A stretch of 64,000 nt of DNA from Desulfomonilia bacterium. GTDB taxonomy: Bacteria > Desulfobacterota > Desulfomonilia > UBA1062. The stretch is from NCBI GenBank assembly GCA_963664325.2, contig CAXXDQ010000005.1, forward strand, positions 128,001 to 192,000, read 5' to 3'. The position numbers and the translations under genes were made by a program. Positions 5,340-64,000 of this stretch are shown one piece after another. Numbering within the stretch: the first letter of the stretch is position 1; the number at the start of each line of letters is the position of its first letter. The notes beneath the pieces were generated by a model. That model did not search any database and was not told where the DNA came from. It saw only the letters and a program-made list of their open reading frames with translations.

Positions 5340-6260
5340 ATGCGGCATGTAACGGTACTCCTCGAGGAGGTCGTTCAGTTGATAGCTCCAAGGGACGGCG
5401 GCAGGTATTTCGATGGCACGCTAGGTGGCGGAGGTCATGCGCAGGCCATTCTCGATGCAAGCGCACCAACCGGAATGCTTGCAGGGACAGACCTTGATGC
5501 CGATGCCGTTTCGAAACTTCAGGAGACATTCAGGTCATTCGGTTCAAGGGCCAGTTTTTTCAGAGGCAATTACACTTCAATAGATACAGTATGCACGACG
5601 CTGGGCTGGGAGAGCCTCTCGGGCGTAGTACTTGATCTTGGTGTTTCCTCGTTCCAGCTTGACATGGCGGACAAGGGCTTTTCATTTTCAAAGGAGGCCC
5701 CGCTCGATATGAGATTTGAAAGTGAAGCCGGGTTATCGGCTTATGATGTCGTCAACAGATATGAAGAAAAGGAACTGGCCAGGGTTATCTGGGAGTACGG
5801 CGAGGAAAGATTTTCAAGAAGAATTGCCGGGAAAATTGCCTGTAACAGGCCGGTCGAGACCACCACGGCCCTTGCCGATCTTGTCTCCGGGGCAATCCCG
5901 AGGAAGTTCTGGCCTGTAAATATCCATCCTGCGACAAGGACCTTCCAGGCAATAAGGATAGAGGTCAACCGGGAGCTTGACAATCTCAGGGAATTCCTTC
6001 CCAAGGCGGCGACACTGCTTGAGCCGGGCGGCGTCATGGCAATAATTTCGTTCCACTCGCTTGAGGACAGGATTGTGAAACAGTTTTTTGCAGGTCCTGT
6101 GCCTGACATCTCCGCGAGGGAAATACCGGTTCCAGCCGGAACGGATATGCCGATGATGGAAAGGATAACAAAAAAACCGGTTATGCCCTCACCCGTGGAA
6201 ATCAACTCCAATCCGAGGGCAAGGAGCGCCAAACTCAGGGCTGCGAGGAGAAAAGGATGA
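5340..6260 (+). CDS. rsmH: 16S rRNA m4C1402 methyltransferase
   Basis: DGTLGGGGH, DLGVSSFQLD, HPATRTFQAIRIEVN, NPRARSAKLR. Confidence 0.97.
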   Translation: MRHVTVLLEEVVQLIAPRDGGRYFDGTLGGGGHAQAILDASAPTGMLAGTDLDADAVSKLQETFRSFGSRASFFRGNYTSIDTVCTTLGWESLSGVVLDLGVSSFQLDMADKGFSFSKEAPLDMRFESEAGLSAYDVVNRYEEKELARVIWEYGEERFSRRIAGKIACNRPVETTTALADLVSGAIPRKFWPVNIHPATRTFQAIRIEVNRELDNLREFLPKAATLLEPGGVMAIISFHSLEDRIVKQFFAGPVPDISAREIPVPAGTDMPMMERITKKPVMPSPVEINSNPRARSAKLRAARRKG

Positions 6261-41144: not shown

Positions 41145-43466
41145 CTAAATATTGTCACCAACAAAAACAGTTTTTATCTTGGTTATCTCGGACGGCAGCA
41201 GTTTGTCTTCTCCGAATGTCTCTATAAGCAGTGCAGGCGATATCGTCCTTCCGCCGACAAAGCGTATTGTAAGCGCGGCCTCATCGTTCTGTCCAAGGTA
41301 ATCATTCACAACAAGTTCGGCCTCGCCTTTTCTGATCGCTGCACCTTCGCCGAGTTTGAGCCTTAAGGGCCGCATCAGCCTGAAGGTATAGGCGGCGACC
41401 TGTCTGAGCCTGCCCTTCATGCATGATTTGATGGCCATGCCTTCAGGCATATGGCCTGAGAGCGTTTCGGCCGCCTCCTCTGCCGGAAGGTCTTCTGCGA
41501 GGTCAAGCTGCATGTATTCGTCTTCCGATGCGATACCCAGGGATACCGGCGGAATGAGGGTAAGCCTCATGGCCGGGCTGAAGCCTTCGGAATACGAGGC
41601 CCTCAAACCCGAGCGCCTCACAGCCCGCTTGATCATCTCGATAAAGTCCCTGTTGCCGATCAGCGATAAAGCCCCCGTCTTTGAAAAGCCAATCACATAG
41701 GGATACCGGCCCTGCGTCAGTGGCGGGAAGAGGTCGATCTTTTCAGCAGGCCCCCTGATAATATTATTAATATCACCCTTGCAGGCGCCGCAATCGAGGC
41801 ACGCGTCTTCCCTGCAGTCAGGGCTCTGAACAGCGTTGTATGCGAGTTCCCTTTCGCGGATGAGGAAATCCCTGTTTATTCCCATATCCATGAATTCCCA
41901 GGGCTGGGCTTTATTTATATCTCTTTCCATCAGATACTCGCCGGGGTCCAGGCCCGCTCTTTCAAAGGCGCCGGTCCATGCCTTGAAATTGAATGTGTCC
42001 GACCAGCCGTCGAGGTAGGCCCCCAGCCTGAACGCGTTTTCCGTTACGCCGGCAAGCCTATCGTCTCCCCTTGAAAAAACGCCTTCCAGAACCGAGAACT
42101 CGGGATCGGTCCACTTGAGGCTGATTCTCCTGTCGCGGAGCTCCCTCTTGAAGTATCCGAGCATGTCATGAAGCCTTGCTGTTGCGATCTGGGCTTCCCA
42201 CTGGAAGGGCGTGAACGTCTTCGGGATGTAGGTGGACACGCTCACATTGACCCCGCCCCTGAATGCGTTGGCGATCTTTCTCGACAGCCTGACTATAGCC
42301 TCGACATCCGCATCCGTTTCGGTGGGCAGTCCTATCATGAAATAAAGCTTGATCAGCTTCCAGCCCTGCTTTCTTATGATCGAAATGCTTCGCAGGAGCT
42401 CGTCTTCGGTATTGCCCTTGTTTATCACGGCCCGCAGCCGCTCGGTCGCCGCCTCGACCGCCAGCGTGAAACCGGGCTTTTTGACGGATGAGATGATGCC
42501 GGCCATCCTTTCGGTCATGCCCTCGACCCTCATGGACGGCACGCCCAGGGAAATCTCGCGTGACGGGCAGTTGAGCGATTCCATTATATCGGCCAGGTAG
42601 CTCAGGTCGGTTATGGAAAGTGCGGTCATGGCCAGGTTGTCATAGCCGGTTGTTTTAAGCCCCTGCCTGAACGTGCTGATAACGGAATCGAAAGACCGCT
42701 CCCTGTAAGGCCTGTAAATCATTCCGGCCTGGCAGAAGCGGCATCCCCTGGTGCAACCCCTGGCAACCTCCACACCGAGCCTGTCGTGCACTATGCTTAT
42801 ATTGGGAACGATGATGTCTGCCGGGAACGGGTGCTTATCGAGGTCCGGCAGAATCCTGCGTACCGGCCTGGCGCCTGAGCCCGGCCTGTAGACGCCTGCA
42901 ATCCCTGACATGGCGCGGATCCGCTCGTCCCTGTCGTTCACAGCCAGGCATATCTGAGCCATTTCAGCCACCACCTCTTCGCCGTCACCGATGACGATCA
43001 GGTCGAAGAATGGCAGGTATGGCGAGGGGCTGGAAGTACAGGTCCCGCCTGCAATGATTACGGGGTCGGTCTTTTTCCGTTCTGCCGCATAAATGGGAAT
43101 GCCGGAAAGGCTGAGCATTCTGAGGACCGTCGTATACGACAGTTCGTGCATGAGCGAGAAACCCACGATGTCAAATTTTCCGAGCGGTCTTTTCTCCTCC
43201 AGCGAAAAAAGGGGTTCTCTATTCTTTTCCAGGAGCGAGGCCATATCGGGCCAGGGCGCGAACACGCGCTGGGCCCACACTCCCCTGATGGAATTAAGGA
43301 TATGGTACAGTATCTTCTGGCCCGAATGCGACATGCCGATTTCATAGGCGTCAGGAAAGGCCAGGGCGAAACGGACTTTGACTTCAGCTTCCGGTCTGCC
43401 GGCCTGGTTTACCTCGCCGCCCGTATAGCGGCCGGGTTTCAGAACCTTTTCGAGGCCTTTTATCAT
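41145..43466 (-). CDS. TIGR03960-type radical SAM protein fused to a TIGR03936-type radical-SAM-linked domain
   Basis: KPGRYTGGE, FPDAYEIGMS, RGCTRGCRFCQAG (CxxxCxxC), KLYFMIGLPTET; C-terminal YSEGFSP..R...LG..S.DE. Confidence 0.88.
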   Translation of the reverse strand: MIKGLEKVLKPGRYTGGEVNQAGRPEAEVKVRFALAFPDAYEIGMSHSGQKILYHILNSIRGVWAQRVFAPWPDMASLLEKNREPLFSLEEKRPLGKFDIVGFSLMHELSYTTVLRMLSLSGIPIYAAERKKTDPVIIAGGTCTSSPSPYLPFFDLIVIGDGEEVVAEMAQICLAVNDRDERIRAMSGIAGVYRPGSGARPVRRILPDLDKHPFPADIIVPNISIVHDRLGVEVARGCTRGCRFCQAGMIYRPYRERSFDSVISTFRQGLKTTGYDNLAMTALSITDLSYLADIMESLNCPSREISLGVPSMRVEGMTERMAGIISSVKKPGFTLAVEAATERLRAVINKGNTEDELLRSISIIRKQGWKLIKLYFMIGLPTETDADVEAIVRLSRKIANAFRGGVNVSVSTYIPKTFTPFQWEAQIATARLHDMLGYFKRELRDRRISLKWTDPEFSVLEGVFSRGDDRLAGVTENAFRLGAYLDGWSDTFNFKAWTGAFERAGLDPGEYLMERDINKAQPWEFMDMGINRDFLIRERELAYNAVQSPDCREDACLDCGACKGDINNIIRGPAEKIDLFPPLTQGRYPYVIGFSKTGALSLIGNRDFIEMIKRAVRRSGLRASYSEGFSPAMRLTLIPPVSLGIASEDEYMQLDLAEDLPAEEAAETLSGHMPEGMAIKSCMKGRLRQVAAYTFRLMRPLRLKLGEGAAIRKGEAELVVNDYLGQNDEAALTIRFVGGRTISPALLIETFGEDKLLPSEITKIKTVFVGDNI

Positions 43467-49513: not shown

Positions 49514-52276
<2,763 letters not shown>

Positions 52277-52344
52277 TTCCGTTTTGCATTCAAGACAATT
52301 ACGCTAGAGCCTGAATGAAAAGCAAAATCTCCCCATCTCCCACC

Positions 52345-52458
52345 CCTCTTCCCCTTAGGTGAAGAGGGCCATCCTTTCGAATAAATCCGCACATGGCGTG
52401 CGGGTTTATTCGAACATGCCATTTCCATGTTCCCAAGCAAAACTTGGGAACATGGAAA
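52345..52458. repeat. Cluster of three strong hairpins (REP-like/terminator) after uvrA
   Basis: CCCTCTTC..GAAGAGGG; TCGAATAAATCCGCAC..GTGCGGGTTTATTCGA; TTTCCATGTTCCCAAG..CTTGGGAACATGGAAA. Confidence 0.65.
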
Positions 52459-52702
52459 GTGAAAGCCGCGCTTGATGCTTGCCGGCGTTGTGAAATGTAT
52501 GTATATTACAGCCTAATTGATGGTTTTGCATTATTGTATTGGAGCGGAATGATATTTATATGGTCAACTTTTTAGGGCAAAGGGAGAATGTTTGTATTTT
52601 GTTATGAGAATATTAAGGCTTTCTTTCAAAAACTACTACTCAGTAAAACAAAACATCGCATTAGGTATAATTATAACTTAGCTTGTTCCTTGGGGATAAA
52701 CA

Positions 52703-53062
52703 ATGTCAGATGTCATTTCAAAAGTCTGTTTGATGCCAAGAGATTTTAAAGTCAGTGGGAATAGGAGCATGATTCAACTCCTCAAAGAATCTGGTTATTT
52801 GGGGTGCAAGAATGGTGTAGAAAAAGATGTGGTTATTAAGTTTCTAGAAAATCATCCTGATTTAATTAAAGAATGGCTAATTTATTCACTTGATAAGCGT
52901 ACTTCGATAGGATGGTATCTCTTGTGTGAAGATTCTGTATGGACTGTTGGGTACTTAAATCATGGTGGGAGAGAAAAAGAGCATAAGTTTATTTCTGGCT
53001 TTGAAGCTTGTGCTATTTTCATAATCAATGAAATTAAGCAGCTTGCTAAAAACGCAATATAA
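52703..53062 (+). CDS. Hypothetical protein (AT-rich, cassette-like)
   Basis: 119-aa ORF with GGGG RBS, visibly lower GC than flanks. Confidence 0.65.
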   Translation: MSDVISKVCLMPRDFKVSGNRSMIQLLKESGYLGCKNGVEKDVVIKFLENHPDLIKEWLIYSLDKRTSIGWYLLCEDSVWTVGYLNHGGREKEHKFISGFEACAIFIINEIKQLAKNAI

Positions 53063-53085
53063 CCAGTGCAACCAGAACATTTTAG

Positions 53086-53146
53086 GGGATGCTGATGAAA
53101 TAATGAGAAAGCTGTTTCTTCAAAATTTTATTATCATCAACGTCCC
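53086..53146. repeat. GGGACGYTGATGA palindromic repeat, copy 1
   Basis: GGGATGCTGATGAAATAAT ... ATTATCATCAACGTCCC. Confidence 0.75.
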
Positions 53147-53276
53147 ACAAGTGGTCTGACTTAGTATACTGTTGTATAGCTTCAGGGTACACGCTATAAA
53201 AAAGAGTTTCAATATTTTTATCTTTATTACCGAACAGTGCATCATGATGATTTCAATAAAAAGGGAGGGGGAAAAC

Positions 53277-53717
53277 ATGAAGATAAAAATTACTTGTCTC
53301 ACACTGGCTGCACTATTCTTCATCCTGTCTTCGTCAGCGGTATTGGCAGAGGAGAAGTTTCCCAATCTTGTCGGCAAATGGACAGGCCAGACTAGGATAG
53401 GACATTCACTGGCCAATGGCTTCGGCAGCGAGCATGGAGGTTTGACGATAGACATTGCGAAACAGGAGGGAAGGCTCTTTACCGGAAACAAGATAATAAA
53501 ACATTTTGACATAAAGAAAAAGAACGTGACAACAAAGGAGCCTATCTCAGGAGTTATTACAACAGACGGTAAAACGCTTTACATAGCCGACAGGGATTTC
53601 GGTGTGACGATCGGCAACATAATATCAGAGGACAACATCGAATTCTATTACATTCAGAGCGGCAAGAAGGAAGGCCAGTTCGTCTCGTACTACAATTTCA
53701 AAAAAATAAAGCAATGA
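53277..53717 (+). CDS. Secreted hypothetical protein
   Basis: GGGAGG RBS, Sec signal ending AVLA, FPNLVGKWTG beta-rich domain. Confidence 0.7.
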   Translation: MKIKITCLTLAALFFILSSSAVLAEEKFPNLVGKWTGQTRIGHSLANGFGSEHGGLTIDIAKQEGRLFTGNKIIKHFDIKKKNVTTKEPISGVITTDGKTLYIADRDFGVTIGNIISEDNIEFYYIQSGKKEGQFVSYYNFKKIKQ

Positions 53718-53743
53718 AGTTTAAATGAGCTTAAAGCATTTTT

Positions 53744-53804
53744 GGTGATGTTGATGAAATTATGAGTAAAATGTTTTTTTAATTCATATAATCATCAACG
53801 TCCC
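53744..53804. repeat. GGGACGYTGATGA palindromic repeat, copy 2
   Basis: GGTGATGTTGATGAAATTAT ... ATAATCATCAACGTCCC; followed by a 13-bp tandem duplication ACGTCCCGCTCAG. Confidence 0.75.
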
Positions 53805-53831
53805 GCTCAGACGTCCCGCTCAGAACTCAGT

Positions 53832-53892
53832 GGTGTCAGACCGTTTAAGCTTGACAATATGAGCATAAGTCAAAGATAAAGGCCTGACTCCC
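53832..53892. repeat. GGxGTCAG...CTGACxCC palindrome (second REP-like family)
   Basis: GGTGTCAGACC..TTGAC..GTCAA..GGCCTGACTCC; half sites GGTCTGACTT also near 53153 and 49428. Confidence 0.55.
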
Positions 53893-53903
53893 GTTGTTAT
53901 TGT

Positions 53904-54083
53904 TCAACTAGCGTTAATTACTTCACATGCGTCGCACCAAGACGACCACGCATAACATCCGGTGTCGTGTTCATTAAAGCCTATCGATGCATCATCAGTC
54001 TTGCACGCAAGCAGTATCGCTTCCTGCTTAGACGGGCGACAAAGGATTACTAATTCCGGGCGATTCCATTGTTTTTTAGCCAT
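53904..54083 (-). CDS. Candidate RiPP precursor, family 1 (59 aa)
   Basis: GGAGAG RBS; MAKKQWNRPELVILCRPSKQEAILLACK...C......C..C.....S; leader homologous to 57575-57760. Confidence 0.75.
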   Translation of the reverse strand: MAKKQWNRPELVILCRPSKQEAILLACKTDDASIGFNEHDTGCYAWSSWCDACEVINAS

Positions 54084-54374
54084 AAATTCTCTCCAGTTCA
54101 ATGGGGAAGGCTGAGATGGTTCATTGACTGAACACCCTCGCAAATACCTCAAAAAACAAAAACCCCACTTTATCATAATTTATTGATCATACATCCTTAA
54201 TGACACTATTAGATAAGCACAAGGGATAATTCAAGTCACTTCTCGGACCCTGGGAGACGATGTTAACTAACATGAACTTGATGTCGTATTCAAACCTCAG
54301 TCCCTCAGGCATTCCTCCGATATTCAATTATCGAGGAATCCGCATTTTCCCATAAGATTTGTGGGGGCACTTTA

Positions 54375-54431
54375 GGGACGCTGATGAAATTATGATATAT
54401 AATTTAAAAATCATATTATCAGCAACGTCCC
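54375..54431. repeat. GGGACGYTGATGA palindromic repeat, copy 3
   Basis: GGGACGCTGATGAAATTAT ... ATATTATCAGCAACGTCCC. Confidence 0.75.
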
Positions 54432-54461
54432 CCATAAATCCATTTTGTGGCAGAAAAATAT

Positions 54462-55637
54462 TTACAGTATTTTATTCAACAGCGGAATGCGCAACAGGAT
54501 GTAGTAGGCGATCAAAAAGCACAGCGGAATCGAGATCAGGCCAGCCAGCGCCCACTTGAGTACCGGCATCATATACAGTGGTGTCATAAGCTTTGTTACG
54601 GCAACAATTATCGGCGGGTGGAACATATAAACGGCAAACGCGCCGGCGGACAATTTTTGCGTAAGTTTGTTGCTGAAATTTAATTTGTCGCGAAACAGCG
54701 CCAGAAGCCCCATGGTCATAGCCACACCAACGAATGATTCCCAGAAGGCATAGTAAGCGGCTGGCCAGGAGAGACCGCCGATTACTCTTTTGCCTGTGTC
54801 TACAGACTTCATTGTAAGAGTTGAAAAATCATAAGGACCGGCGAAGTATTTTAATATCAGCCAACCGATAAAGCCTAAAATCAACCCTGCCGCCAGCCAT
54901 CTTCTTCCGGTGGCCGACGTCATGCTTTCAAAACAGTTCGTGCGGTATGCAACAATCCCCGCTGTGAACATGATAATGTATTGCGAAAAAAATCCCAGCT
55001 GCATTCCCCAGAACACTGACCCGATGGGAAAAAACAATCGCAGCGAAAACGCAACCATCGCAATGATGACAATGAGCAGCAGCAGGCGCCCGGTAGTCAC
55101 AATACCCTGCCTGGAATCAGACGCTGCCGGAAGCGGAAAGAGCAGACGCCAAAGTGTATATATCAGGCAAAAAATAAACAATGCCAGCGCGAACCACATC
55201 GGGCCGACGCCAAGAAGATGTATTCCGGCAGACTTAAAGTATTGCCAGTAAAATTCCGGGAAACTGGAAGTGCTGCCTTTCCATAGGGCTGTTGACCCTA
55301 CCACTGCTATCATCAAAGGAGTTACCACCAGCAGAAAAAACATTGAAGGCAGGACGAGTCTCCGGCATCTGTCGGATAAAAACCGGACGGGGCTTTTCCG
55401 GTCATAGGCCAGGGGCGTAAAATAGCCTGCCACAAAGAAAAGCATCCCCATGGAAAACCCCTGAGCGAAAGCCTGGAAGAAACTGAAGAAAATATGGTTG
55501 AAGAAGCCAAGCGGCCGTGCTTCGTTATAAAACCAGATGCCGCTGCCGCTGTAAGTCACAGCCAGATGAATCAGAATCACCAGCATGATCGTAGCGACAC
55601 GCAGATTGTCAATGTAATAAAGGCGCTTCTTTTCCAT
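54462..55637 (-). CDS. Acyltransferase-3 family membrane protein (OpgC/MdoC-like)
   Basis: RLYYIDNLR...LIH, MGMLFFVAGYF, R..RL..P, GPMWF, VYMFH. Confidence 0.85.
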   Translation of the reverse strand: MEKKRLYYIDNLRVATIMLVILIHLAVTYSGSGIWFYNEARPLGFFNHIFFSFFQAFAQGFSMGMLFFVAGYFTPLAYDRKSPVRFLSDRCRRLVLPSMFFLLVVTPLMIAVVGSTALWKGSTSSFPEFYWQYFKSAGIHLLGVGPMWFALALFIFCLIYTLWRLLFPLPAASDSRQGIVTTGRLLLLIVIIAMVAFSLRLFFPIGSVFWGMQLGFFSQYIIMFTAGIVAYRTNCFESMTSATGRRWLAAGLILGFIGWLILKYFAGPYDFSTLTMKSVDTGKRVIGGLSWPAAYYAFWESFVGVAMTMGLLALFRDKLNFSNKLTQKLSAGAFAVYMFHPPIIVAVTKLMTPLYMMPVLKWALAGLISIPLCFLIAYYILLRIPLLNKIL

Positions 55638-55995
55638 TAAAATGTAAGTTTCCTTTCAGGGAAAGTAAGTCCTAAACCTCGAAATTTTATAGTCCTGATA
55701 TATCAGTCAGTTACAACAATAGAAACAGATTGTTTTCAAGTTACTTATATCAATACATATAGCATCTGAAAACCAATACATTTTCAAACGGTTAAAAGTT
55801 GCAATCCTTCATAGTACTCTTTCATTCTTCAGGCAAGGCACATGGCTTTCATGACTTACAGATATTGGAGAACCATAGGGGACGTTGCTGCCCAAATAAC
55901 TTCCGGACTGTACGAACGTTACAGCTTGATTGCCGATTGCAGAATATTTCACAAATACCAGCCATAATCCGATATGTATTTTGTCAGGAGATGAG

Positions 55996-57354
55996 ATGGA
56001 AAGAAAGAAGATACTGAGGTTTAAGGATCTCGCGCTTTTTACATTCTGCGCGATATTCGGGTTGGAGGCCATTGCAGCCTCCGCCGCTATCGGTCCATCG
56101 GCCATCTTCTGGTGGCTGTTATGCCTCGCCTGTTATTTTATACCGTTCGGAATGATTGCTGCAGAGCTGGGCTCGACCTATCCCGAGCAGGGCGGGCTTT
56201 ACGTCTGGATCAAAAAAGCGATGGGGCGCCGGTGGGCGGCCCGGAGCGTCTGGTATTACTGGATATCCCTGCCGGTATGGCTGCCCGCAATCTATATCGC
56301 CATCGCGGATATTTTAGGGCACATCTTTTTCCCCGGCATCACCTTCTGGCAGCAGATCGCAATAAGCGTCGTGCTGATATGGATCGCCCTCGGAATCAAT
56401 CTGTGTCCCCTGAACGCTTCAAAATGGATACCCAACATAGGCTCCGTCGCGCAATTTAGCATTGTGGCGGGAATGATCGCAACCGCTGCGCTGTTTTTCC
56501 TGAAAAACGGGCGCATGGCCAACCGGATCACCCTTGCGGAAGTAATGCCTAACATGAACGCCGCGCTTGTCTTCATCCCGATGATCATCTACAACCTCCA
56601 GGGCTGCGAACTTGTCTCATCGGCTGCCGGCGAGATGAAAAATCCTGCCCGCGACATCCCCCGGGCGCTTATTTTATGCGCCTTCGTAATCGCGGTGCTG
56701 TACTTGATGACGACCTTCTCGGTCTGGGTCGTGATTCCGGTCAATGAGATCAACGTGGCGAGCGGCGTGCTTAACGTATTCACGAACGCACTTGACGATA
56801 ACATCGCGAAGCCCTTTATCACGGTTGCAGCCGGTCTCCTGATATCGTGCGCTTTCTTTGCGGGAATCATCGCCTGGAATCTTGGGCTGAACCGTACCAT
56901 CGCCGAGTCCGCGAACAACGGGGATATGCCGGGGATCCTGGGGAAGATGAACAGGAACATGGCCCCGCTGGGGGCGTCGGTTGTATCCGGGATCATCTCC
57001 ACCGCAGTGATTCTTATTTATGGATTCATCGCGAGCGATGCGGCCGAACTGTTCTGGCATACGGTCTCGTTCAGTCTTATCGTTCAACTGTTTTCAAATC
57101 TGATGCTGTTCCCGACTTTTATAATCCTGCGGAATAAAGATAAGGGTGCTCCCAGGCCTTTCAGTGTGCCCGGGCCCGATTGGTTAGCGATTTTTCTGGC
57201 CTTCCTGGCGGGCATATTTGTACTGGCCGCCATTGTCATACTTATTATCCAGCCGGGGCAGGATATAGTCAGGGTAACCATGCCGATCATCGCCGGAGTG
57301 ATAACAGTCGTCATCGCGGGCGAGATTTTGTTATCCCGTTGTAAACCAGAGTGA
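55996..57354 (+). CDS. APC-family amino acid/polyamine permease
   Basis: AELGSTYPEQGGLYVW, GCEL....AGEMKNPARDIP, about 12 TM; start reassigned to ATG 55996. Confidence 0.88.
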   Translation: MERKKILRFKDLALFTFCAIFGLEAIAASAAIGPSAIFWWLLCLACYFIPFGMIAAELGSTYPEQGGLYVWIKKAMGRRWAARSVWYYWISLPVWLPAIYIAIADILGHIFFPGITFWQQIAISVVLIWIALGINLCPLNASKWIPNIGSVAQFSIVAGMIATAALFFLKNGRMANRITLAEVMPNMNAALVFIPMIIYNLQGCELVSSAAGEMKNPARDIPRALILCAFVIAVLYLMTTFSVWVVIPVNEINVASGVLNVFTNALDDNIAKPFITVAAGLLISCAFFAGIIAWNLGLNRTIAESANNGDMPGILGKMNRNMAPLGASVVSGIISTAVILIYGFIASDAAELFWHTVSFSLIVQLFSNLMLFPTFIILRNKDKGAPRPFSVPGPDWLAIFLAFLAGIFVLAAIVILIIQPGQDIVRVTMPIIAGVITVVIAGEILLSRCKPE

Positions 57355-57372
57355 CCCATGAGAGGACGCCAA

Positions 57373-57544
57373 GGGCATCAGGCGGAATGACAGGTCCGGG
57401 AAACGGGCCGACAGGCCTTCCTTGATGCGCTGCCCTATCGCAGTTATGTCGGACAGGGCCATATCCGAGCCGAAAACAAGCTCCAGCTCAACAAAGCGCG
57501 TATTGCCTCTGCAGCACGTGTAAACCAGCCCGATATTCTCGAAA
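57373..57544 (-). pseudogene. Relic 3' end of the CDF transporter gene (direct repeat of 63045-63216)
   Basis: 172-bp ungapped alignment, about 26 mismatches by manual count; encodes FENIGLV...ELELVFGSDM...FRLMP. Confidence 0.9.
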
Positions 57545-57574
57545 AAGAGAGGGCTCAGAGAGGAAGACAAGATA

Positions 57575-57760
57575 ATGGATGAAAGCAGGAAGAAATTGTG
57601 GATGAAGCCGGAACTGACCATACTGGTGCGCAACAAGCCTGAAGAGGCGGTGCTTGCTGCATGCAAAGGCAGTATTGGCTCAACGTCATTGGCTGTTCAA
57701 TACAATAACTGCCGTTTTAACGAATGCTCAAACTATTGCACGGATCAGGTAACATCTTAA
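57575..57760 (+). CDS. Candidate RiPP precursor, family 1 (61 aa)
   Basis: MDESRKKLWMKPELTILVRNKPEEAVLAACK...C....C...C.....S; homologous to 53904-54083. Confidence 0.78.
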   Translation: MDESRKKLWMKPELTILVRNKPEEAVLAACKGSIGSTSLAVQYNNCRFNECSNYCTDQVTS

Positions 57761-57889
57761 GCCGATCTCTCAAGAACCGGAACCAGGGAAAGAGCAATAA
57801 GTAAAAGGCATTTGTGATCGACAGGACATGGTGACTGGCCTTAATTGTCTCTTTTCAAGGCATGACACCTTGTTCGCATGAATTGACGC

Positions 57890-58123
57890 CTAAAATCCGA
57901 TTCCTGTTATATCGCAATAGATCGCAGCAATGTTTCCATTAATCACGCAAAAATCGGCTGAATTGCCATTACTCGTACACATATTTCCTGCGGTATTGCC
58001 TGTTGAACAGGAATTCACATCACCGCTGCCGGGACCAAAACAATCGCCTTTGCCGCTTTTGTAATCATAGAGGTCATATGCATATGGTTTTTCATATATC
58101 GGCTTCTGATTCTTTTCTTCCAT
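57890..58123 (-). CDS. Candidate RiPP precursor, family 2, copy B (77 aa)
   Basis: AAGGAG RBS; MEEKNQKPIYEKPYAYDL leader; five Cys spaced 10-11 residues apart in a Gly/Asn/Ser-rich core. Confidence 0.8.
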   Translation of the reverse strand: MEEKNQKPIYEKPYAYDLYDYKSGKGDCFGPGSGDVNSCSTGNTAGNMCTSNGNSADFCVINGNIAAIYCDITGIGF

Positions 58124-58188
58124 TACCCTCTCCTTTGGAAGTGTTTCTATTATGGTATCAAGATTGCGCAGTGTAATCAATACATCCG

Positions 58189-58280
58189 TCATATCATGGC
58201 GCAGAGCCTGTCTCTGAACGCACCGCAATTCATATCCTTTTTCTCGATTGCCGTAACAGCCGATTTCTCCTTGTTATTTT
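58189..58280 (-). pseudogene. Relic 3' end of a GT4 glycosyltransferase gene
   Basis: Encodes SAVTAIEKKDMNCGAFRDRLCAMI* versus GT4 end AAFAAVEKQDASYRSFSDWLYAMI*; offset 414 bp. Confidence 0.8.
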
Positions 58281-58300
58281 GCCGTGTTCGTATGAACTTA

Positions 58301-58537
58301 TTACACAATTCCGCTTCCTGGATTACAACTTGACGGAGCGCCGTTTCCATTATCAATACAAATTCCGCTGTCCGAATTGCCATTACTCAAGCAATTACCC
58401 AGGGCGTGACCGCCTGTTGAACAGAAACTTCCATTGTTGCTGCCGGATTTACAATCATCACCCTTACCGATTTTATAATCGTTGAGATGATATACACACG
58501 GTTTTTCATATGCCGGCTTCTGGTTCTTTTCTTCCAT
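58301..58537 (-). CDS. Candidate RiPP precursor, family 2, copy A (78 aa)
   Basis: AAGGAG RBS; MEEKNQKPAYEKPCVYHL leader; five core Cys spaced 10-11 residues apart. Confidence 0.8.
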   Translation of the reverse strand: MEEKNQKPAYEKPCVYHLNDYKIGKGDDCKSGSNNGSFCSTGGHALGNCLSNGNSDSGICIDNGNGAPSSCNPGSGIV

Positions 58538-58602
58538 TATTTTCTCCTTCGGCGGTGTTTCTATTATGGTATCAAGATTACACGATGGAATCAATACATC
58601 TG

Positions 58603-59799
58603 TCATATCATTGCATAGAGCCAGTCACTGAACGAGCGGTAGCTTGCGTCCTGCTTTTCAACGGCCGCAAATGCCGCTGCCTTTGATATCCCGACGGCAC
58701 TTTCATAATTGACGGGATCGTCAAGATTCCTGATATGCCTGATGTATTGCATGATCGTACGGGCATGGTATTTCATGTTCACGAAGAAATCAGGGGCTTT
58801 CCTTGAATCTTCGTTTACTTGAACCAGAAAACCCTCAGGCGGCATCTCCTCTCTTATGCCGCCCGAGTCGTTTGCAATAACCGGCAACCCGCTGCATATG
58901 CCCTCGACAATAACCCGCGAATACGGCTCCTCCCAGAGAGAGGGGACCAGAAGTATTCTTGTCATTTCATAAATCCTGCGCACATCCATGTCCCATGGCA
59001 TGAAGGTTACGTTTGAAAGATTGAATCCTTCAGGGTTGACCACCGTGCCGGGTTTCATGACCAGAAGAAACTTTTTGTCCTGAAGATTGCTTGCAATGTT
59101 CAGAAATATTCCCAGGCCTTTCGCAGGAGAGCCGTTTATCATAGTGATATATTCCCCCGGCGCAGCGGTGGGGGCAAAATTTTCAAGGCTGATCTGCGGA
59201 ATGAGGTTAATGCTGTTCTGAGAGTAATACGATCTGAATTTATCCTTTAGAAAACTTCCGGTGCATATGAATTTGAACCCGGGTGCGATTTTTCTGAACA
59301 TTCCGGTATATTTATTGAAACCTTCCTCAAATATCTGCTGATCGCTGATGCGGTGCAGCCTGAGGGGCGAGAAGTTCAGGCTTGCCTGCATCGAGAATAT
59401 GTCGGAATTAAGGGTCAGCGTGGCATCGGTTTTCCTGTCTGACAATATATTGCCCCACAAAACCGAAATCCTGTCGATTCTGTCTTTGATATTGTGATGG
59501 TATGCCTGGTTTATATCAAGACCGGATAAGAAGCATTCGAATGAAAACGGGTATCCTTCGAGATGAAATTTGATTTTTCCGTTTCCGGGCAAAACAACCC
59601 GGCCGCCGATGCTCAGGATATCCCTTGTCAGCCTTTCATGATTAAAGCCTTTATCGGCAAGCCACAAAAAGGAGACATCAAATCCATCCTGTGAAAGCTT
59701 TTTAAGGATGGTCAGAACGCTCAATGTCCCCCCTGATGAATTCCTTATGTCAAGATTGCCGGTCATCAGACATGTAATGCGCTTTCCAATCATTATCAC
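58603..59799 (-). CDS. Glycosyltransferase family 4
   Basis: GG at N-terminus, KGL, LLVPSLWEEPYSRVIVEG...GLPVIA..SGGIRE. Confidence 0.88.
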   Translation of the reverse strand: MIMIGKRITCLMTGNLDIRNSSGGTLSVLTILKKLSQDGFDVSFLWLADKGFNHERLTRDILSIGGRVVLPGNGKIKFHLEGYPFSFECFLSGLDINQAYHHNIKDRIDRISVLWGNILSDRKTDATLTLNSDIFSMQASLNFSPLRLHRISDQQIFEEGFNKYTGMFRKIAPGFKFICTGSFLKDKFRSYYSQNSINLIPQISLENFAPTAAPGEYITMINGSPAKGLGIFLNIASNLQDKKFLLVMKPGTVVNPEGFNLSNVTFMPWDMDVRRIYEMTRILLVPSLWEEPYSRVIVEGICSGLPVIANDSGGIREEMPPEGFLVQVNEDSRKAPDFFVNMKYHARTIMQYIRHIRNLDDPVNYESAVGISKAAAFAAVEKQDASYRSFSDWLYAMI

Positions 59800-60013
59800 C
59801 CAATCCTGTCAGTCATTTACTTCAAGACGATATTTTTAGCGGATGAAAATACAGTAGCAAATAGTTCATGGCCAGTCCAACCATAGTTCCCGAAGACGGT
59901 TTTTATTTGCGATGGAGTATCCGGCCGCGTCGAATCCCGGGACCGGGAACGCTTGACTTTCCAGCTGTCATCGGTCACTATAATCTAATATTTTATTTTT
60001 ATAAACATGTGAG

Positions 60014-61798
60014 GTGTTCATCATGATGCGAAAGCTGACAATATTTGCACTGATCATTCCGGCCTTAATTTTTGCCGCCTGCAAAAGCGGGATCAGGGTA
60101 TGGACTGAGCCGTCCACAGAACGGGTCATGCAGTATTCGGTTTCAAAAAAGATCGTCCCGGCGGAAATCTATGCAGCGCACAACGATTACGAATCCTTCC
60201 AGATAGTGATAAACGGCGGTCTCAACGGCCTTACCGGCGTGAATGTAAGTCCGGGCGATCTGACCGGACCCGGCGGCGCGGTCATCGCCAAGGAAAACAT
60301 TGCGCTTTACAGGGAATTTTATGTCCATGTCAGCAAGCCTTCATTTCTATTGGGCGTTGTCGGGGATCTCAGGCTTCCCGGGAACTACCCGGACCCTCTC
60401 ATCCCGTTCACAGACCCGTACGATCCCGCCCATCCCGCTGTGGGTGCGCCTTTCAAAGTGGACAAGCTCAAGAATCAGCCGGTATGGGCCGAGGTCTATA
60501 TCCCTGAAGGCATACCCGCAGGGGAATATATAGGCACGATGACGGTGAGCGCTGACGGTATGAAGCCGGTTGAAATTGAAGTAAAGGCGACAGTCTGGGA
60601 TTTCAGCATCCCGAAGGAAAGGACCGTCTCGACCGCCTATGGCCTTTATGACAGCACCCCGGATAAATTCCATGCAGCAGGTTCGCTTGCACAAACCCAT
60701 TATAATTACGAACTGGAGCTCCACAAGCACAGACTTGATGTAACGAGGATCACGGGCCTTGCATCGAATCCTTTCAGGTTCGGCAGCGACGGCCATCTGC
60801 TCCCGGTGGACTGGACCGAGTACGATTCGATAGTCAGCCCCAGGCTCGACGGCAGCTACTATGGCGACGGCATTGGCATGCACAAGCTGAACGCAGGCTT
60901 CTTCCGCCCCGGAAGCGGCGGGTGGCTTGAAACCGGTATCACCGACGATCAGTACAAGGAAGCAGCACGGGAGTTCGCCCGCCACCTGAAGGAAAAGGGA
61001 TGGATGGACAGGGTTTACGTTTACTGCCAGGACGAACCGTTCTGGAACAATGTCCCGTATGAAGATCTGGCGTATGACATAAGGCTCATGCTCGAGGCCG
61101 ACCCGGACTGGAAAGGCGCATTCATGGACACAAACTGGTGGGTCAGGGAGCTCGACGGCCTGATAGACATCTGGTGCCCCGAAGTCACGAAGTATGAAGG
61201 CTGGCTGACCGCCGGCATCCTCGATTTCGCCGGAAGGGATGAATACGACAATATGCGGGCCAGAGGCGAAAACCTCTGGTTCTATGTATGCAACGCGACC
61301 GTGCCGCCGTATGCCGGTTACGATATAGACACCATGATAGCTTACGAGCCCCGCATCATGATGTGGGGCGCCTGGTATGAAAAGGCGGTGGGCTTTCTTT
61401 ACTGGTGCACGACCGCCTGGAAGGAGGTCAACCCGTGGGAAGATCCTCTCGCTTTCCCGATATGCCCGAGAAACGGCGATGGTTTCCTTTTCTATCCCGG
61501 CGATCATAACGGGACGGCCGCGCCCGTGGGCTCCCCGGAAGAGGTCTCAATCAACGGGCCGGTGACTTCGATCAGGCTTAAGCAGACTAGAGACGGCCTT
61601 GAAGACTGGGAGATGTTCAAGATAGCCGCCAGTATCGCAGGCGAGGACGCCGTAAGAGATGCGGTTTCAAAGGCATACACGCAGCTCGGGACTGCGCCGG
61701 TTCTGGGGATATGGAATCCTCTCAGCCCGCCGTGGACGCATGATGGAAAGGTCATCGAAGAAGTGAGAAAAGAAGTCGCTTCTTTGATATGCAGGTAA
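60014..61798 (+). CDS. DUF4091-containing glycoside hydrolase-like lipoprotein (GH123-like)
   Basis: Lipobox FAAC, NDYESFQI, YPDPLIP, QPVW.EVYIP, DEP, W.YVC, GFLYW, GDG.L.YPG, SIRL...RDGLEDWE. Confidence 0.75.
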   Translation: MFIMMRKLTIFALIIPALIFAACKSGIRVWTEPSTERVMQYSVSKKIVPAEIYAAHNDYESFQIVINGGLNGLTGVNVSPGDLTGPGGAVIAKENIALYREFYVHVSKPSFLLGVVGDLRLPGNYPDPLIPFTDPYDPAHPAVGAPFKVDKLKNQPVWAEVYIPEGIPAGEYIGTMTVSADGMKPVEIEVKATVWDFSIPKERTVSTAYGLYDSTPDKFHAAGSLAQTHYNYELELHKHRLDVTRITGLASNPFRFGSDGHLLPVDWTEYDSIVSPRLDGSYYGDGIGMHKLNAGFFRPGSGGWLETGITDDQYKEAAREFARHLKEKGWMDRVYVYCQDEPFWNNVPYEDLAYDIRLMLEADPDWKGAFMDTNWWVRELDGLIDIWCPEVTKYEGWLTAGILDFAGRDEYDNMRARGENLWFYVCNATVPPYAGYDIDTMIAYEPRIMMWGAWYEKAVGFLYWCTTAWKEVNPWEDPLAFPICPRNGDGFLFYPGDHNGTAAPVGSPEEVSINGPVTSIRLKQTRDGLEDWEMFKIAASIAGEDAVRDAVSKAYTQLGTAPVLGIWNPLSPPWTHDGKVIEEVRKEVASLICR

Positions 61799-62243
61799 TA
61801 ATAACTTTACATCTCTGCATCGCTCCTTGACCTGTTATGTTTGCAGGTATGATACCTATATTTTCATCAATGACAGTTGAATCTTATAATCCAATCAGGG
61901 TCCCGGTCTGTTTCCGGGCTTAAGGTGCAGAAGGATTTATTCCGGCGCCCTGTAGACAATCAACCGGTCTTTTATTTTCAAGCCGGTACTTATGATAAAA
62001 GTTGTTTGAAAACCATGCTTGAGGCTTGCTTATGGTGAAGAATATATGTAATCTATAGCGTAATTGATGATTTTGCATAATTGGATTGCAGCGGCATAAC
62101 AGTAATATGAACAATTTTTTCGGGCATAGGGAGGATGTTTTGAATTGGGTGGTGAAAATCGATCTTTCTTTTATAAATTATCGCTCTGTTTCAACAAGAC
62201 ACTGCATGCTGAGTAACCATTAGTCGTGTGCTGATGAATAATT

Positions 62244-62906
62244 ATGCAATATGCATATGACTTAATTCAAACCAACCCTGAGTATTTTGCCTTGGGGTTC
62301 GTGCTGGTTAATGTTCTTTGGGTTCTTTTTGCCTATCTCAATAAACAAAGACACGACAAAGCATTGGCGAATCTGGCTCGCAATCTGAAACTGGAAGCAG
62401 AGCGGAGAAAGACCATATTTGAGCTAAAAGTTGCCCAATACGAATCCTATGTGAATAACCTGGATGAGTTTGGCAGAAAACATCAGGTGGACATTCCCTC
62501 ACGGATGCAACCGATTTTTAAAAAATATCTTCGAGATATAATGGAAGCTTCGGAGCTGCAGAACAAGGAAAAGACGAAGGATGTAATTGTCTGGTTTTGC
62601 GATCAGATTACCACATTGATGCAGGAAGGTTTAAATGATGTGCTTAAACTTCAATCCGAATCCAACCGGTTAAAGCTTACCGCCACAGATGAAATGATTG
62701 AAACATTCAATAGACTTGAATACCTGACTAAGGAATCAATGGAAAAGACCAATGAATTCATGCAGAGATTCATTGAGATCAACCTTTCACAAAATGATGA
62801 TGCAATAGATAACTACCTGCTGACCTCGAAAAAGATCGGGCTTGCCATGAAGACAGAGGCAGAAAAACTGATGAAACAAATGAGAAACGAACTTGCGCAA
62901 ATCTAG
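62244..62906 (+). CDS. Hypothetical membrane-anchored coiled-coil protein
   Basis: 220-aa ORF, one N-terminal TM, helical remainder, AT-richer than flanks. Confidence 0.7.
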   Translation: MQYAYDLIQTNPEYFALGFVLVNVLWVLFAYLNKQRHDKALANLARNLKLEAERRKTIFELKVAQYESYVNNLDEFGRKHQVDIPSRMQPIFKKYLRDIMEASELQNKEKTKDVIVWFCDQITTLMQEGLNDVLKLQSESNRLKLTATDEMIETFNRLEYLTKESMEKTNEFMQRFIEINLSQNDDAIDNYLLTSKKIGLAMKTEAEKLMKQMRNELAQI

Positions 62907-63008
62907 GCTTCCCCGGGCACGCCAATCAGCTAATCGGACGCAGTATGCTGCGGGACGCTGAAAAAATAAATAACCTGAATGCTGTCTGAAACCTGGACCC
63001 CCTGGGTT

Positions 63009-63965
63009 TTATCGCGAAGCGGACAGGTCCGTGACAGCGGTCACGGGCATCAGGCGGAAGGTCAGGTCCGGGAAATGGGCAGACAAGCCTTCTTTGATGC
63101 GCTGTTCTATTGCGGCTATATCGGACAGGCTCATATCAGAACCGAAAACCAGCTCCAGCTCTATGAAGCGCGTATTGCCGCTGCGGCGCGTGCAGACCAG
63201 CCCGATATTTTCGAAATTGGCGTATTCGCGCATTATGACCTGCAGTATTTTCATCTGGTCTTTCTCCGGCAGGGGGAGGTCGATGAGAGACTTGAAATTC
63301 TTCACGACGAGACGGCTGCCGTTTACCAGCATATAAGAGGCCAGCAGTACCGTCACAACAGGGTCGATCATCATGGCAGGCCCGCGCATGTTCATCGATA
63401 TGAGAACCAGCGCCAGCCCCAGTGCCGCCATCACGCCCGTATCCACCACGGCTGATATCCTGTAGTTGATCCTGTAGGAACCCATTAGCGATGTCTGCCG
63501 CCGGTTCCGGCGTATTATCCATGAGGTAAATACAAATAGTCCCAGGGAACGGAGAAGAGATATCCCCATGGGTATCTGGCTCAGACCGAAGAGTATGTTT
63601 GCCGGAGGGTTGAAAAAGCGGATTACGGCTGAATAGATCAGGAAACAGCCCGTCGGCATAAGCAGGGTGCCGTATAAAAGACTGGTGAAGTTCTCAAGTT
63701 TGCCCACGCCGTAAGGGAATGTGAAGATGTTTTTTCTGAGCATGATGCGGATGGCCGCGAAGGCGAAAATATTGACGATGATTGACAGGCCGTAGTCAAC
63801 CGCCACTGCGAAGATGGTCAGGGAATCCGAAACGAGACCGATGGCGATAAACAGGACAGTGAGCGGAATAAGCGTTCCGACTCCCCAGTACACCACGAGG
63901 CGGAGGTCGTTCAGCTGCCGGGAAGATTCGTCTTGAAACTTCGTATTGGTATGGTTTTCAGGCAT
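63009..63965 (-). CDS. Cation diffusion facilitator (CDF) family transporter, atypical
   Basis: FPYGVGKLEN motif, six TM, C-terminal TRRSG..RFIELEL dimerisation domain; GGAG RBS. Confidence 0.8.
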   Translation of the reverse strand: MPENHTNTKFQDESSRQLNDLRLVVYWGVGTLIPLTVLFIAIGLVSDSLTIFAVAVDYGLSIIVNIFAFAAIRIMLRKNIFTFPYGVGKLENFTSLLYGTLLMPTGCFLIYSAVIRFFNPPANILFGLSQIPMGISLLRSLGLFVFTSWIIRRNRRQTSLMGSYRINYRISAVVDTGVMAALGLALVLISMNMRGPAMMIDPVVTVLLASYMLVNGSRLVVKNFKSLIDLPLPEKDQMKILQVIMREYANFENIGLVCTRRSGNTRFIELELVFGSDMSLSDIAAIEQRIKEGLSAHFPDLTFRLMPVTAVTDLSASR

Positions 63966-64000
63966 AGTCTCCAGTTTGAAGATATAAGGCGGGCAGACTT

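Follow-up and report, generated by a model that had tools for sequence, protein, structure and literature searches.

Four short genes in a 64,000-nucleotide (nt) stretch of DNA from a Desulfomonilia bacterium encode peptides that resemble precursors of peptides made by ribosomes and modified after translation (RiPPs). The stretch, referred to here as the window, covers positions 128,001 to 192,000 of the forward strand of contig CAXXDQ010000005.1 (C5) of assembly GCA_963664325.2 (genome G000), and window positions are counted over its full length. The genes A1, A2, B1 and B2 are intact open reading frames (ORFs) located at 53904-58537, in an island that reaches 59799 when the adjoining gene for a family 4 glycosyltransferase (GT4) is included, and they represent two families, A and B (Table 1). 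They are probably working satellite precursor genes of two related radical S-adenosylmethionine (SAM) RiPP systems with enzymes encoded at other sites of the genome, where paralogues of each family sit among genes for radical SAM/SPASM proteins and PqqD-type RiPP recognition elements (RREs).

An earlier annotation made from the letters of this DNA and their ORFs, the sequence-only reading, had proposed four Cys-rich, precursor-like ORFs of two families at this place, and both the ORFs of the window and the family profiles bear it out. The leader of A1, WNRPELVIL...QEAILLACK, and that of A2, WMKPELTILVRNKPEEAVLAACK, are each followed by three core Cys and a C-terminal Ser. The ORF listed for A1 reaches 54176; the ATG at 54083, with GGAG 8-9 nt upstream, is the start consistent with the family, and A1 retains all invariant columns of a 50-sequence alignment. 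B1 has the leader KPIYEKP, followed by GSGD and then by a Cys every 10-11 residues, with Cys-Cys spacings of 11, 10, 10 and 11; in B2 the spacings after a leader Cys are 10, 10, 11 and 11.

We scored the four genes against independent profiles composed of other-organism homologues only (117 for family A and 38 for family B, with 3 A and 5 B sequences from this genome dropped), using 200 shuffled sequences as the control. The window genes scored 58-80 bits, versus 12.7 bits for the best shuffle on the A profile and 8.2 bits on the B profile, which places A1 and A2, and B1 and B2, far above chance as members of two real families. None of the four peptides matched any Pfam or NCBIfam model, and in the ESM Atlas A2 (0.93) and B1 (0.88) matched unnamed "hypothetical protein" clusters only.

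Database clusters number 1068 for family A at E<=1e-3 and 43 for family B, all named "hypothetical" and none with a Pfam domain; organism labels on the family A clusters are few, and are Desulfomonilia and Chloroflexi. Among the best 120 family A matches, the leader motif W..PEL..L is present in 117 and E..VL..CK in 116, and exactly three core Cys occur in 112 of those 116, with a median core length of 31 residues. The C-terminal residue is Ser in 114 of the 120 and Thr in 5. The family B leader follows the pattern K-P-x-Y-E-x-P; of its 38 other-organism homologues, 37 have Y-x-x-P in the leader, all 38 have a GSGD-like motif, and 30 contain the repeat module C-x(2-5)-G-[NS] 4-5 times. The periodic Cys that the sequence-only reading had pointed out in the YEKP-leader peptides recurs in these homologues, in which the interval from one Cys to the next is 10 or 11 residues in 125 of 147 cases. 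The invariant leader and Cys positions are all kept in the four window genes. Both families have the conserved leader and variable Cys core of precursors to RRE-dependent radical SAM/SPASM RiPPs, and this design, together with the near-invariant C-terminal Ser of family A, fits enzymatic processing.

A Shine-Dalgarno site lies upstream of each of the four genes. The B genes are also preceded by a promoter-like sequence, TTGATT-N17-TACCAT with an upstream TG, whose hexamers fall in invariant columns of five aligned B copies. The Shine-Dalgarno sites and the conserved promoter-like site may be taken as signs of expression. One of the five aligned copies, on contig C4, apparently starts with GTG (positions 5415-5417 of locus L005) where the other four have ATG; this copy retains the Shine-Dalgarno and promoter-like sites.

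Table 1. Features of the peptide island, its surroundings and the two enzyme clusters. Positions are those of the window unless a contig is named; aa, amino acids; bit scores of the peptides are from other-organism profiles.
Feature	Position	Strand	Description
A1, family A precursor gene	53904-54083	-	59 aa; ATG at 54083; GGAG upstream; 63.9 bits
A2, family A precursor gene	57575-57760	+	61 aa; GAGG before ATG; 75.1 bits
B1, family B (SynChlorMet-type) precursor gene	57890-58123	-	77 aa; AAGGAG before ATG; 80.1 bits
B2, family B precursor gene	58301-58537	-	78 aa; AAGGAG before ATG; 58.0 bits
5' region of B1	58124-58262	-	duplicated last ~70 nt of GT4 gene and promoter-like TTGATT-N17-TACCAT with upstream TG (58180-58152)
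GT4-B2 spacer	58538-58602	-	promoter-like TTGATT at 58594-58589 and TGaTACCAT at 58574-58566; begins 9 nt past GT4 stop
GT4, divergent glycosyltransferase	58603-59799	-	398 aa; directly upstream of B2; PF13692, 42 bits; PF00534, 35 bits
Family A cluster (L001)	contig C3, ~856-866 kb		five A genes interleaved with enzyme genes
Family B cluster (L002)	contig C7, ~475-481 kb		three B genes in SynChlorMet-type cassette ScmC/D/E/F
Acyl_transf_3 membrane acyltransferase, bystander	54462-55637	-	PF01757, 101.6 bits
APC-family amino acid permease, bystander	55930-57354	+	PF13520, 164.9 bits
GH123-like lipoprotein	60014-61798	+	PF13320, 66.2 bits
CDF cation efflux transporter, conserved right border of variable interval	63009-63965	-	TIGR01297, 89 bits (cut-off 82.35)
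CDF 3'-end fragment	57370-57544	-	175 nt; 85% copy of 63042-63216; tblastn, 59 aa at 78%
Imperfect palindromes (three, ~65 nt)	53082-53146, 53741-53804, 54371-54431		local repeat comparison

Cognate enzyme clusters in this and other genomes

The sequence-only reading had seen no maturase in the island, and this holds across the genome scans: of 8 SPASM, 4 PqqD and 52 Radical_SAM matches in the whole genome, none lies on C5 between window position 43466 and the contig end, and no maturase was found in the island or on the remainder of its contig. A radical SAM gene at 41145-43466 was considered as a hidden maturase and rejected, as its product is a B12-binding enzyme of TIGR03960 (586 bits) with housekeeping neighbours; genes for TilS, Mfd, a PPIase and UvrA stand between it and the island.

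The SPASM and PqqD matches fall within the two sites where A and B paralogues cluster. Searches of all contigs with tblastn and profiles gave a genome total of 9 family A loci, 5 of which are inside a radical SAM/PqqD cluster on contig C3 (C3:859-864 kb), and 8 family B loci, 3 of which are inside a SynChlorMet-type cassette on contig C7 (C7:479-481 kb). Outside these clusters are 4 of the 8 intact A genes and 5 of the 7 intact B genes, which we call stray copies. None of the four window genes adjoins genes for a PqqD-type RRE and a radical SAM/SPASM enzyme, whereas their C3 and C7 paralogues do.

The C3 cluster encodes radical SAM/SPASM proteins of 370, 387 and 673 amino acids (aa) and a 99-aa PqqD protein, and also an S24/S26 peptidase-GNAT fusion, a PF14907 (NTP_transf_5) nucleotidyltransferase and an MsbA-like ABC exporter. 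In the C7 cassette, ScmC is fused to an S26 peptidase and passes its NCBIfam cut-off (153.7 versus 125 bits), and there are two PqqD proteins (two ScmD). The C-terminal 300 residues of the 673-aa C3 enzyme align with ScmC around a shared P-loop (25% identity over 182 aa, E = 1e-5, BLASTP), and the A and B systems are related. This genome (positions 11488-13509 of L001, C3) and at least two others (L076, L077) encode the ScmC-like P-loop domain as a fusion to a radical SAM/SPASM enzyme; in five others (L079, L081-L084) it is a separate protein of 297-339 aa.

The same associations were found in other genomes. Both families are present in all three sister species of the genus (G007, G008 and G009), and of the 51 other genomes in the order, only 4 contain family A and only 4 contain family B. 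In a sample of 400 genomes of the phylum, family B was found in 12 genomes and family A in 11, and we searched up to 20 kb around each best A or B site with the cluster proteins of this genome, giving 12 A and 12 B loci, all in other genomes. Orthologues of the C3 enzymes adjoin 9 of the 12 A loci; one more locus is truncated where its contig ends, and the other two stand alone. Scm genes lie within ~2 kb of 8 of the 12 B loci. The sequence-only reading had stated that it would fall if homologues never occurred with RRE or radical SAM genes, and these counts show that they do. An ScmE-like gene is present in 10 of 12 B-positive genomes versus 23 of 388 B-negative ones (Fisher p = 2e-10, in a sample whose related members are not independent), and in the remaining two B-positive genomes ScmC, ScmF or the peptidase lies beside B on short contigs. 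In other genomes, B-like genes adjoin an ScmE that scores above its curated cut-off (for example G187, 560 bits; G315, 579; G165, 554; G430, 557).

Precursor genes without neighbouring enzymes are also found outside this genome. All three sister species hold both home clusters, and G007 and G008 hold stray copies as well. Four of the 12 B loci in the phylum lack neighbouring Scm genes, two of them with in-frame TAG stops, and all four are in genomes with ScmE on another contig; stray precursors are therefore not peculiar to this organism. An IS110-family transposase gene (positions 3830-4885 of L003, C3 ~1031.8-1032.9 kb) lies ~200 bp from the stray A gene at C3:1033103. Stray A genes of the genus repeatedly adjoin a lipoprotein gene, which is GH123-like at two loci (L060 7974-11493 and L061 3300-6822) and Big_5/BNR-like at a third (L004 5530-9200), and these same three also adjoin a gene whose 576-aa product contains an AAT domain (Ntn-hydrolase, penicillin-acyltransferase-like). 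This adjacency may reflect inherited synteny or a functional link.

A proposed route of maturation in trans

Because both cognate clusters are present in this genome, and A and B loci elsewhere adjoin orthologous enzymes, the window genes are most likely matured in trans. The sequence-only reading had suggested a dispersed precursor library processed in this way. What stands of that suggestion is that the peptides are of RiPP precursor type, fall into two families and are dispersed, with maturases elsewhere (on C3 and C7); processing in trans itself is what we infer from the arrangement. We propose that each peptide would be translated from its own start site, with the B genes also using their own promoter-like site, and that the [W/Y]-x-K-P-x-L leader would dock on the PqqD protein of the cognate cluster. 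Leader cores of the form [W/Y]-x-K/x-P-x-L are the kind of motif bound by PqqD-type RREs. The A precursors encoded in the C3 cluster are 33-44% identical to A2 and diverge from each other as much as the stray ones do, so the single C3 RRE must already accept that spread.

A predicted complex of the C3 PqqD protein with A2 supports such docking weakly; it scored 0.41, versus 0.01 for the best of three controls, with a contact agreement between runs of at least 89% and a partner pLDDT (predicted local distance difference test) of at least 47. In calibration with 80 solved complexes and 110 mismatched pairs, 58 of the former and 2 of the latter reached the mark used, and scores of 0.60 or less accounted for only 7 of the 80 and for both passing mismatches. 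The pass of the PqqD-A2 model may reflect likeness to RRE-leader complexes that have already been solved.

The radical SAM/SPASM enzymes would then cross-link the Cys-bearing core, with thioethers as the likeliest chemistry. The best matches of the maturases to PapB, AlbA and StsB were 42-104 bits versus cut-offs of 340-850, and among the NCBIfam models no characterised maturase family came near its curated cut-off for the C3 and C7 radical SAM enzymes. In family A, the kinase-like domain would act on the near-invariant C-terminal Ser, a modification that the nucleotidyltransferase may then extend. The S24/S26 peptidase would remove the leader, and the ABC transporter would export the product. 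In the model of the ScmC-like domain of the 673-aa C3 enzyme (pLDDT 67.4), the predicted fold matches phosphoenolpyruvate (PEP) carboxykinase at E = 6e-7 and HprK/P at E = 6.7e-6, with a TM score of 0.48-0.54 by target length. HPr-kinase homologues phosphorylate the C-terminal Ser of lasso peptide precursors, and a nucleotidyltransferase adds a hexose to the phosphate, according to a review (PMC8498205). By analogy, the near-invariant Ser at the end of family A peptides, which A1 and A2 also have, fits such kinase/nucleotidyltransferase chemistry.

Several observations weigh against this account. The A1 leader deviates at four near-invariant positions (LCRPSKQEAI versus LVRNKPEEAV), and genes of both families do undergo decay, one precursor copy in each home cluster being broken by a stop, by TGA at C3:859607 and by TAA at C7:480396; in G009, the B gene linked to GT4 is interrupted by TAA. 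(The broken copies span positions 6593-6780 of L001, which is C3:859607-859783, ~8396-8635 of L002, which is C7:480396-480635, and 6722-6928 of L059 in G009.) Three of the C7 parts score below their curated cut-offs, ScmE at 391.7 versus 400, ScmF at 313.6 versus 400 and ScmD at 54.4 versus 100. Pairwise ratios of nonsynonymous to synonymous substitution (dN/dS) range from 0.32 to 0.93, with most pairs at 0.32-0.66 and B2 versus its G008 counterpart at 0.93, in genes too short for function to be separated from decay; such a range would fit a hypervariable core and would equally fit relaxed constraint. The island is full of recombination scars, namely the fragment of the cation diffusion facilitator (CDF) gene, GT4 remnants and a tandem duplication. 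Transcription and modification of the window peptides are points that we infer from sequence features, and the cross-link chemistry is assumed, not derived. The model of the kinase-like domain is of moderate quality, and a comparison of two ScmC-like domains with the sequences of solved structures returned unrelated proteins (E = 0.69 and 0.017) and no solved kinase.

Island architecture and rival explanations

The island, located in the variable interval that separates uvrA from the CDF gene, is a patchwork produced by recombination and not a biosynthetic unit or operon. The gene identities given by the sequence-only reading for the neighbours (GT4, acyltransferase-3, APC permease, glycoside hydrolase (GH)-like lipoprotein and CDF) agree with the Pfam and NCBIfam matches. 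The interval (52277-63008; sister loci L055, L056 and L057) differs among all four species of the genus. In G009 it contains uvrA, the acyltransferase gene (with residues 105-257 lost), the permease gene, 6 kb of unrelated genes and CDF; in G008 it contains the permease gene and 8 kb of other genes, and in G007 neither the acyltransferase nor the permease gene. The permease has orthologues with 90-91% identity at the same place in G008 and G009, the CDF transporter has orthologues with 73-75% identity in all three sister species, and the GH123-like lipoprotein has orthologues with 81-82% identity beside A genes on contig C6 of G007 and contig C102 of G008. There are no peptide genes at the uvrA-CDF site in G007, G008 or G009. 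Since the acyltransferase and permease genes are present in sister species at a site that lacks the peptide genes, they are older residents, and the peptide genes came later.

The CDF fragment lies 5.7 kb to the left of the intact gene, and the two bracket a 5.5-kb block containing A2, B1, B2, GT4, the GH123-like gene and the ORF orf220, an arrangement that looks like the scar of an insertion or of unequal recombination. B1 and B2 form a 414-nt tandem duplication (75% identity) in which each copy carries ~70 nt of the GT4 3' end, seen as a 265-nt direct repeat, 57998-58262 and 58412-58676, with 75% identity. To the left, the three palindromes are spaced at ~640 bp, and each comes after a single small gene, namely orf119, an ORF of 181 aa (53172-53717) that matches no family, and A1, so that A1 is inside a 566-bp unit bounded by two palindrome copies. 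The layout is cassette-like. The palindromes have the sequence G(T/C)TGATGAAAT...ATCATCAACGTCCC, form predicted hairpins with energies between -10.3 and -11.8 kcal/mol (z between -2.8 and -4.9) and, in an nhmmer search, had strong copies in this genome only here; each sister genome has one full or partial copy at the same uvrA-side hot spot. Integron attC sites have outer AAC...GTT cores. We rejected an identity of the palindromes with attC sites, as their G(T/C)TGATGA...TCATCAAC has the reversed core order and the best match to the integron integrase model TIGR02249 was 84.3 bits versus a cut-off of 265. An Rfam scan of 52200-64000 gave two sub-threshold chance matches only, none near the peptides. 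Two further ORFs, orf220 (62244-62906, 220 aa) and orf119 (52703-53062, 119 aa), matched no Pfam or NCBIfam model; the orf220 protein has a predicted membrane segment at its N-terminus, and the sequence after it is long, charged and rich in helix.

Alternatively, GT4, B2 and B1 could form a self-contained glycopeptide operon, with GT4 glycosylating the Ser/Thr/Asn/Cys-rich B cores in place of SynChlorMet-type maturation or in addition to it. GT4 and B2 share a strand, with the end of GT4 66 nt ahead of B2, G008 and G009 retain the GT4-then-B order with ~80% nucleotide identity at a different chromosomal site, where the pair adjoins two amidohydrolase genes, and the last ~70 nt of GT4 moved with the duplicated B gene, both to B1 and to the contig C4 copy. 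GT4 also has a faint match to the radical-SAM-associated glycosyltransferase model TIGR04157 (18.2 bits versus a cut-off of 400). However, the GT4 gene is single-copy in this genome, with no match besides the window copy, and elsewhere in the collection of species genomes it occurs only at the two sister loci; the C7 home cassette has no GT4, and on contig C4, which holds the site matching that of the sister pair, the B gene survives with a GT4 stub and without GT4. The reverse is seen in G009, where GT4 is intact and its B gene has the TAA. A conserved promoter-like site of its own precedes each B gene, right after the GT4 stop. A glycosyltransferase that consistently accompanies its peptide, as in glycocin-type systems, is not what we found, as GT4 lies beside B in this genus only and at 0 of the 12 B loci elsewhere in the phylum; the sole distant relative of GT4 in the 400 genomes (38% identity over 154 aa) is located among glycosyltransferase genes, with no B gene in the 5.7 kb examined. 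Moreover, the known glycocin peptide S- and O-glycosyltransferases are GT2 enzymes, not GT4. We regard the glycopeptide operon as unlikely: GT4 may tailor the B peptides but is more likely just an inherited neighbour, and it is the order conserved within the genus that leaves a role in glycosylation some small chance. No relative of GT4, the acyltransferase, the permease or the GH123-like gene was found at the 24 A and B loci of other genomes in the phylum. The suggestion of the sequence-only reading that genes of the island supply sugar or acyl tailoring was therefore not borne out, given 0 of 24 such loci with relatives, a GT4-B pairing limited to the genus, and an acyltransferase and permease that are older residents.

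It is also conceivable that duplication and insertion in a recombination hot spot left the four ORFs behind as non-functional remnants, still open by chance or by recent origin. This would account for an interval that differs in all four species, with its piece of CDF, its stubs of GT4 and its tandem duplication, for the pseudogenised copies in the home clusters and G009, and for the dN/dS of up to 0.93 for B2. Yet all four frames are intact even though B1 and B2 have diverged to 75% nucleotide identity, the invariant leader and Cys positions are all kept, ribosome-binding sites precede all four genes with a promoter-like site conserved in the B copies, dN/dS is 0.32-0.66 for most pairs, and stray intact copies are found repeatedly, both in sister species and in genomes that are distant. 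We consider decay of this kind distinctly improbable, less so than an altogether different role in which the ORFs encode unmodified, small, Cys-rich metal-binding or signalling peptides tied to the neighbouring CDF transporter, which we find hardly credible. The proximity of Cys-rich ORFs to a cation efflux gene speaks for such a role, but the CDF gene is a conserved border gene that is present in sister species without peptides beside it, the families track radical SAM/PqqD clusters and not CDF genes, and the conserved leader, variable core and near-invariant C-terminal Ser fit enzymatic processing.

Comparison with known systems and significance

Satellite precursors presumably served by enzymes at C3 and C7 have a precedent. 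Prochlorosins are made by ProcM from a precursor library encoded away from that one maturase. The likeness lies in the many diverged precursor genes with a common leader, mostly scattered, and the enzymes at one site. In contrast to prochlorosins, radical SAM/SPASM proteins and a PqqD-type RRE take the place of a lanthionine synthetase, there are two families with two enzyme sets, and processing in trans is proposed. A second comparison is with sactipeptides and ranthipeptides, in which a radical SAM enzyme joins Cys sulfur to carbon as a thioether, among them freyrasin, which has repeated Cys-X3-Asp motifs and is made by PapB. Shared features are the Cys-rich cores, the radical SAM/SPASM maturases, the Y/W-x-x-P-x-L type leader and, in family B, a regular Cys module; the systems described here differ in that their maturases fall far below the PapB, AlbA and StsB cut-offs and in that each system has two or three radical SAM enzymes and a kinase-like protein.

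The block on C7 holds the same four components as the SynChlorMet cassette (TIGR04248 ScmD, TIGR04249 ScmC, TIGR04250 ScmE and TIGR04251 ScmF). It differs in that only ScmC passes its curated cut-off, and the window has stray precursors and none of the enzymes. The Pfam/NCBIfam library searched contains no peptide model for a SynChlorMet precursor and, to our knowledge, the family description names none as identified. A literature search, which did not cover supplements and in which subscription journals were largely absent, found no paper on the SynChlorMet cassette, its four TIGR families or either peptide family, and none joining HPr kinase, radical SAM, PqqD and precursor peptide; the papers found on PF14907 and RiPPs were general ones on radical SAM RiPPs, none of which describes these clusters in its title or abstract. 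The sequence-only reading had called this the best candidate for an undescribed system. For family A and its cluster, which match no model or paper in the collections covered, that description stands, whereas the maturases of family B match a catalogued, though uncharacterised, NCBIfam cassette.

The family A cluster also resembles the tailoring of the lasso peptides paeninodin and pseudomycoidin, as described in the same review (PMC8498205), in its C-terminal Ser, its predicted HPr-kinase/PEP-carboxykinase-fold P-loop domain and its nucleotidyltransferase (here PF14907). Family A combines the terminal Ser (114 of the best 120 matches) with a putative HPr-kinase homologue recognised from the fold model. 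It differs in that the core-modifying enzymes are radical SAM proteins and in that a kinase activity is suggested by the fold alone. There is no asparagine-synthetase-like lasso cyclase among the annotated ORFs of the C3 cluster, where no search was aimed at one, and we do not class the system as a lasso peptide.

A wider and more speculative view, which we hold to be doubtful, is that A and B are substrates of a single undescribed SynChlorMet-type RiPP superfamily, in which several radical SAM/SPASM enzymes, an RRE, an HPr-kinase-fold enzyme and a signal-peptidase-like protease would make multiply cross-linked peptides. The C-terminal Ser of family A would be phosphorylated or phospho-glycosylated, and the precursor genes would be mobile, self-promoted units (A1 being in a hairpin-bounded cassette) that form a changing library around a fixed enzyme hub, with one branch of the genus having recruited GT4 for glycosylation.

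The finding itself is a set of stray precursors that belong to two related radical SAM RiPP systems, both uncharacterised, in an arrangement that has precedent; a precursor island without enzymes need not be a new kind of system. Family B is a concrete candidate substrate family for the catalogued SynChlorMet cassette. Family A is a large unmodelled family whose peptides combine a W-x-K-P-E-L leader with a Cys-Lys junction, three Cys in the core and Ser at the C-terminus, and it is linked to a conserved cluster in which there are as many as three radical SAM enzymes. The short genes and known partner enzymes make both systems suited to co-expression and mass spectrometry. For genome mining, the distribution of these genes is a caution, as cluster-based tools would miss stray precursors, which are over half of the intact ones in this genome.

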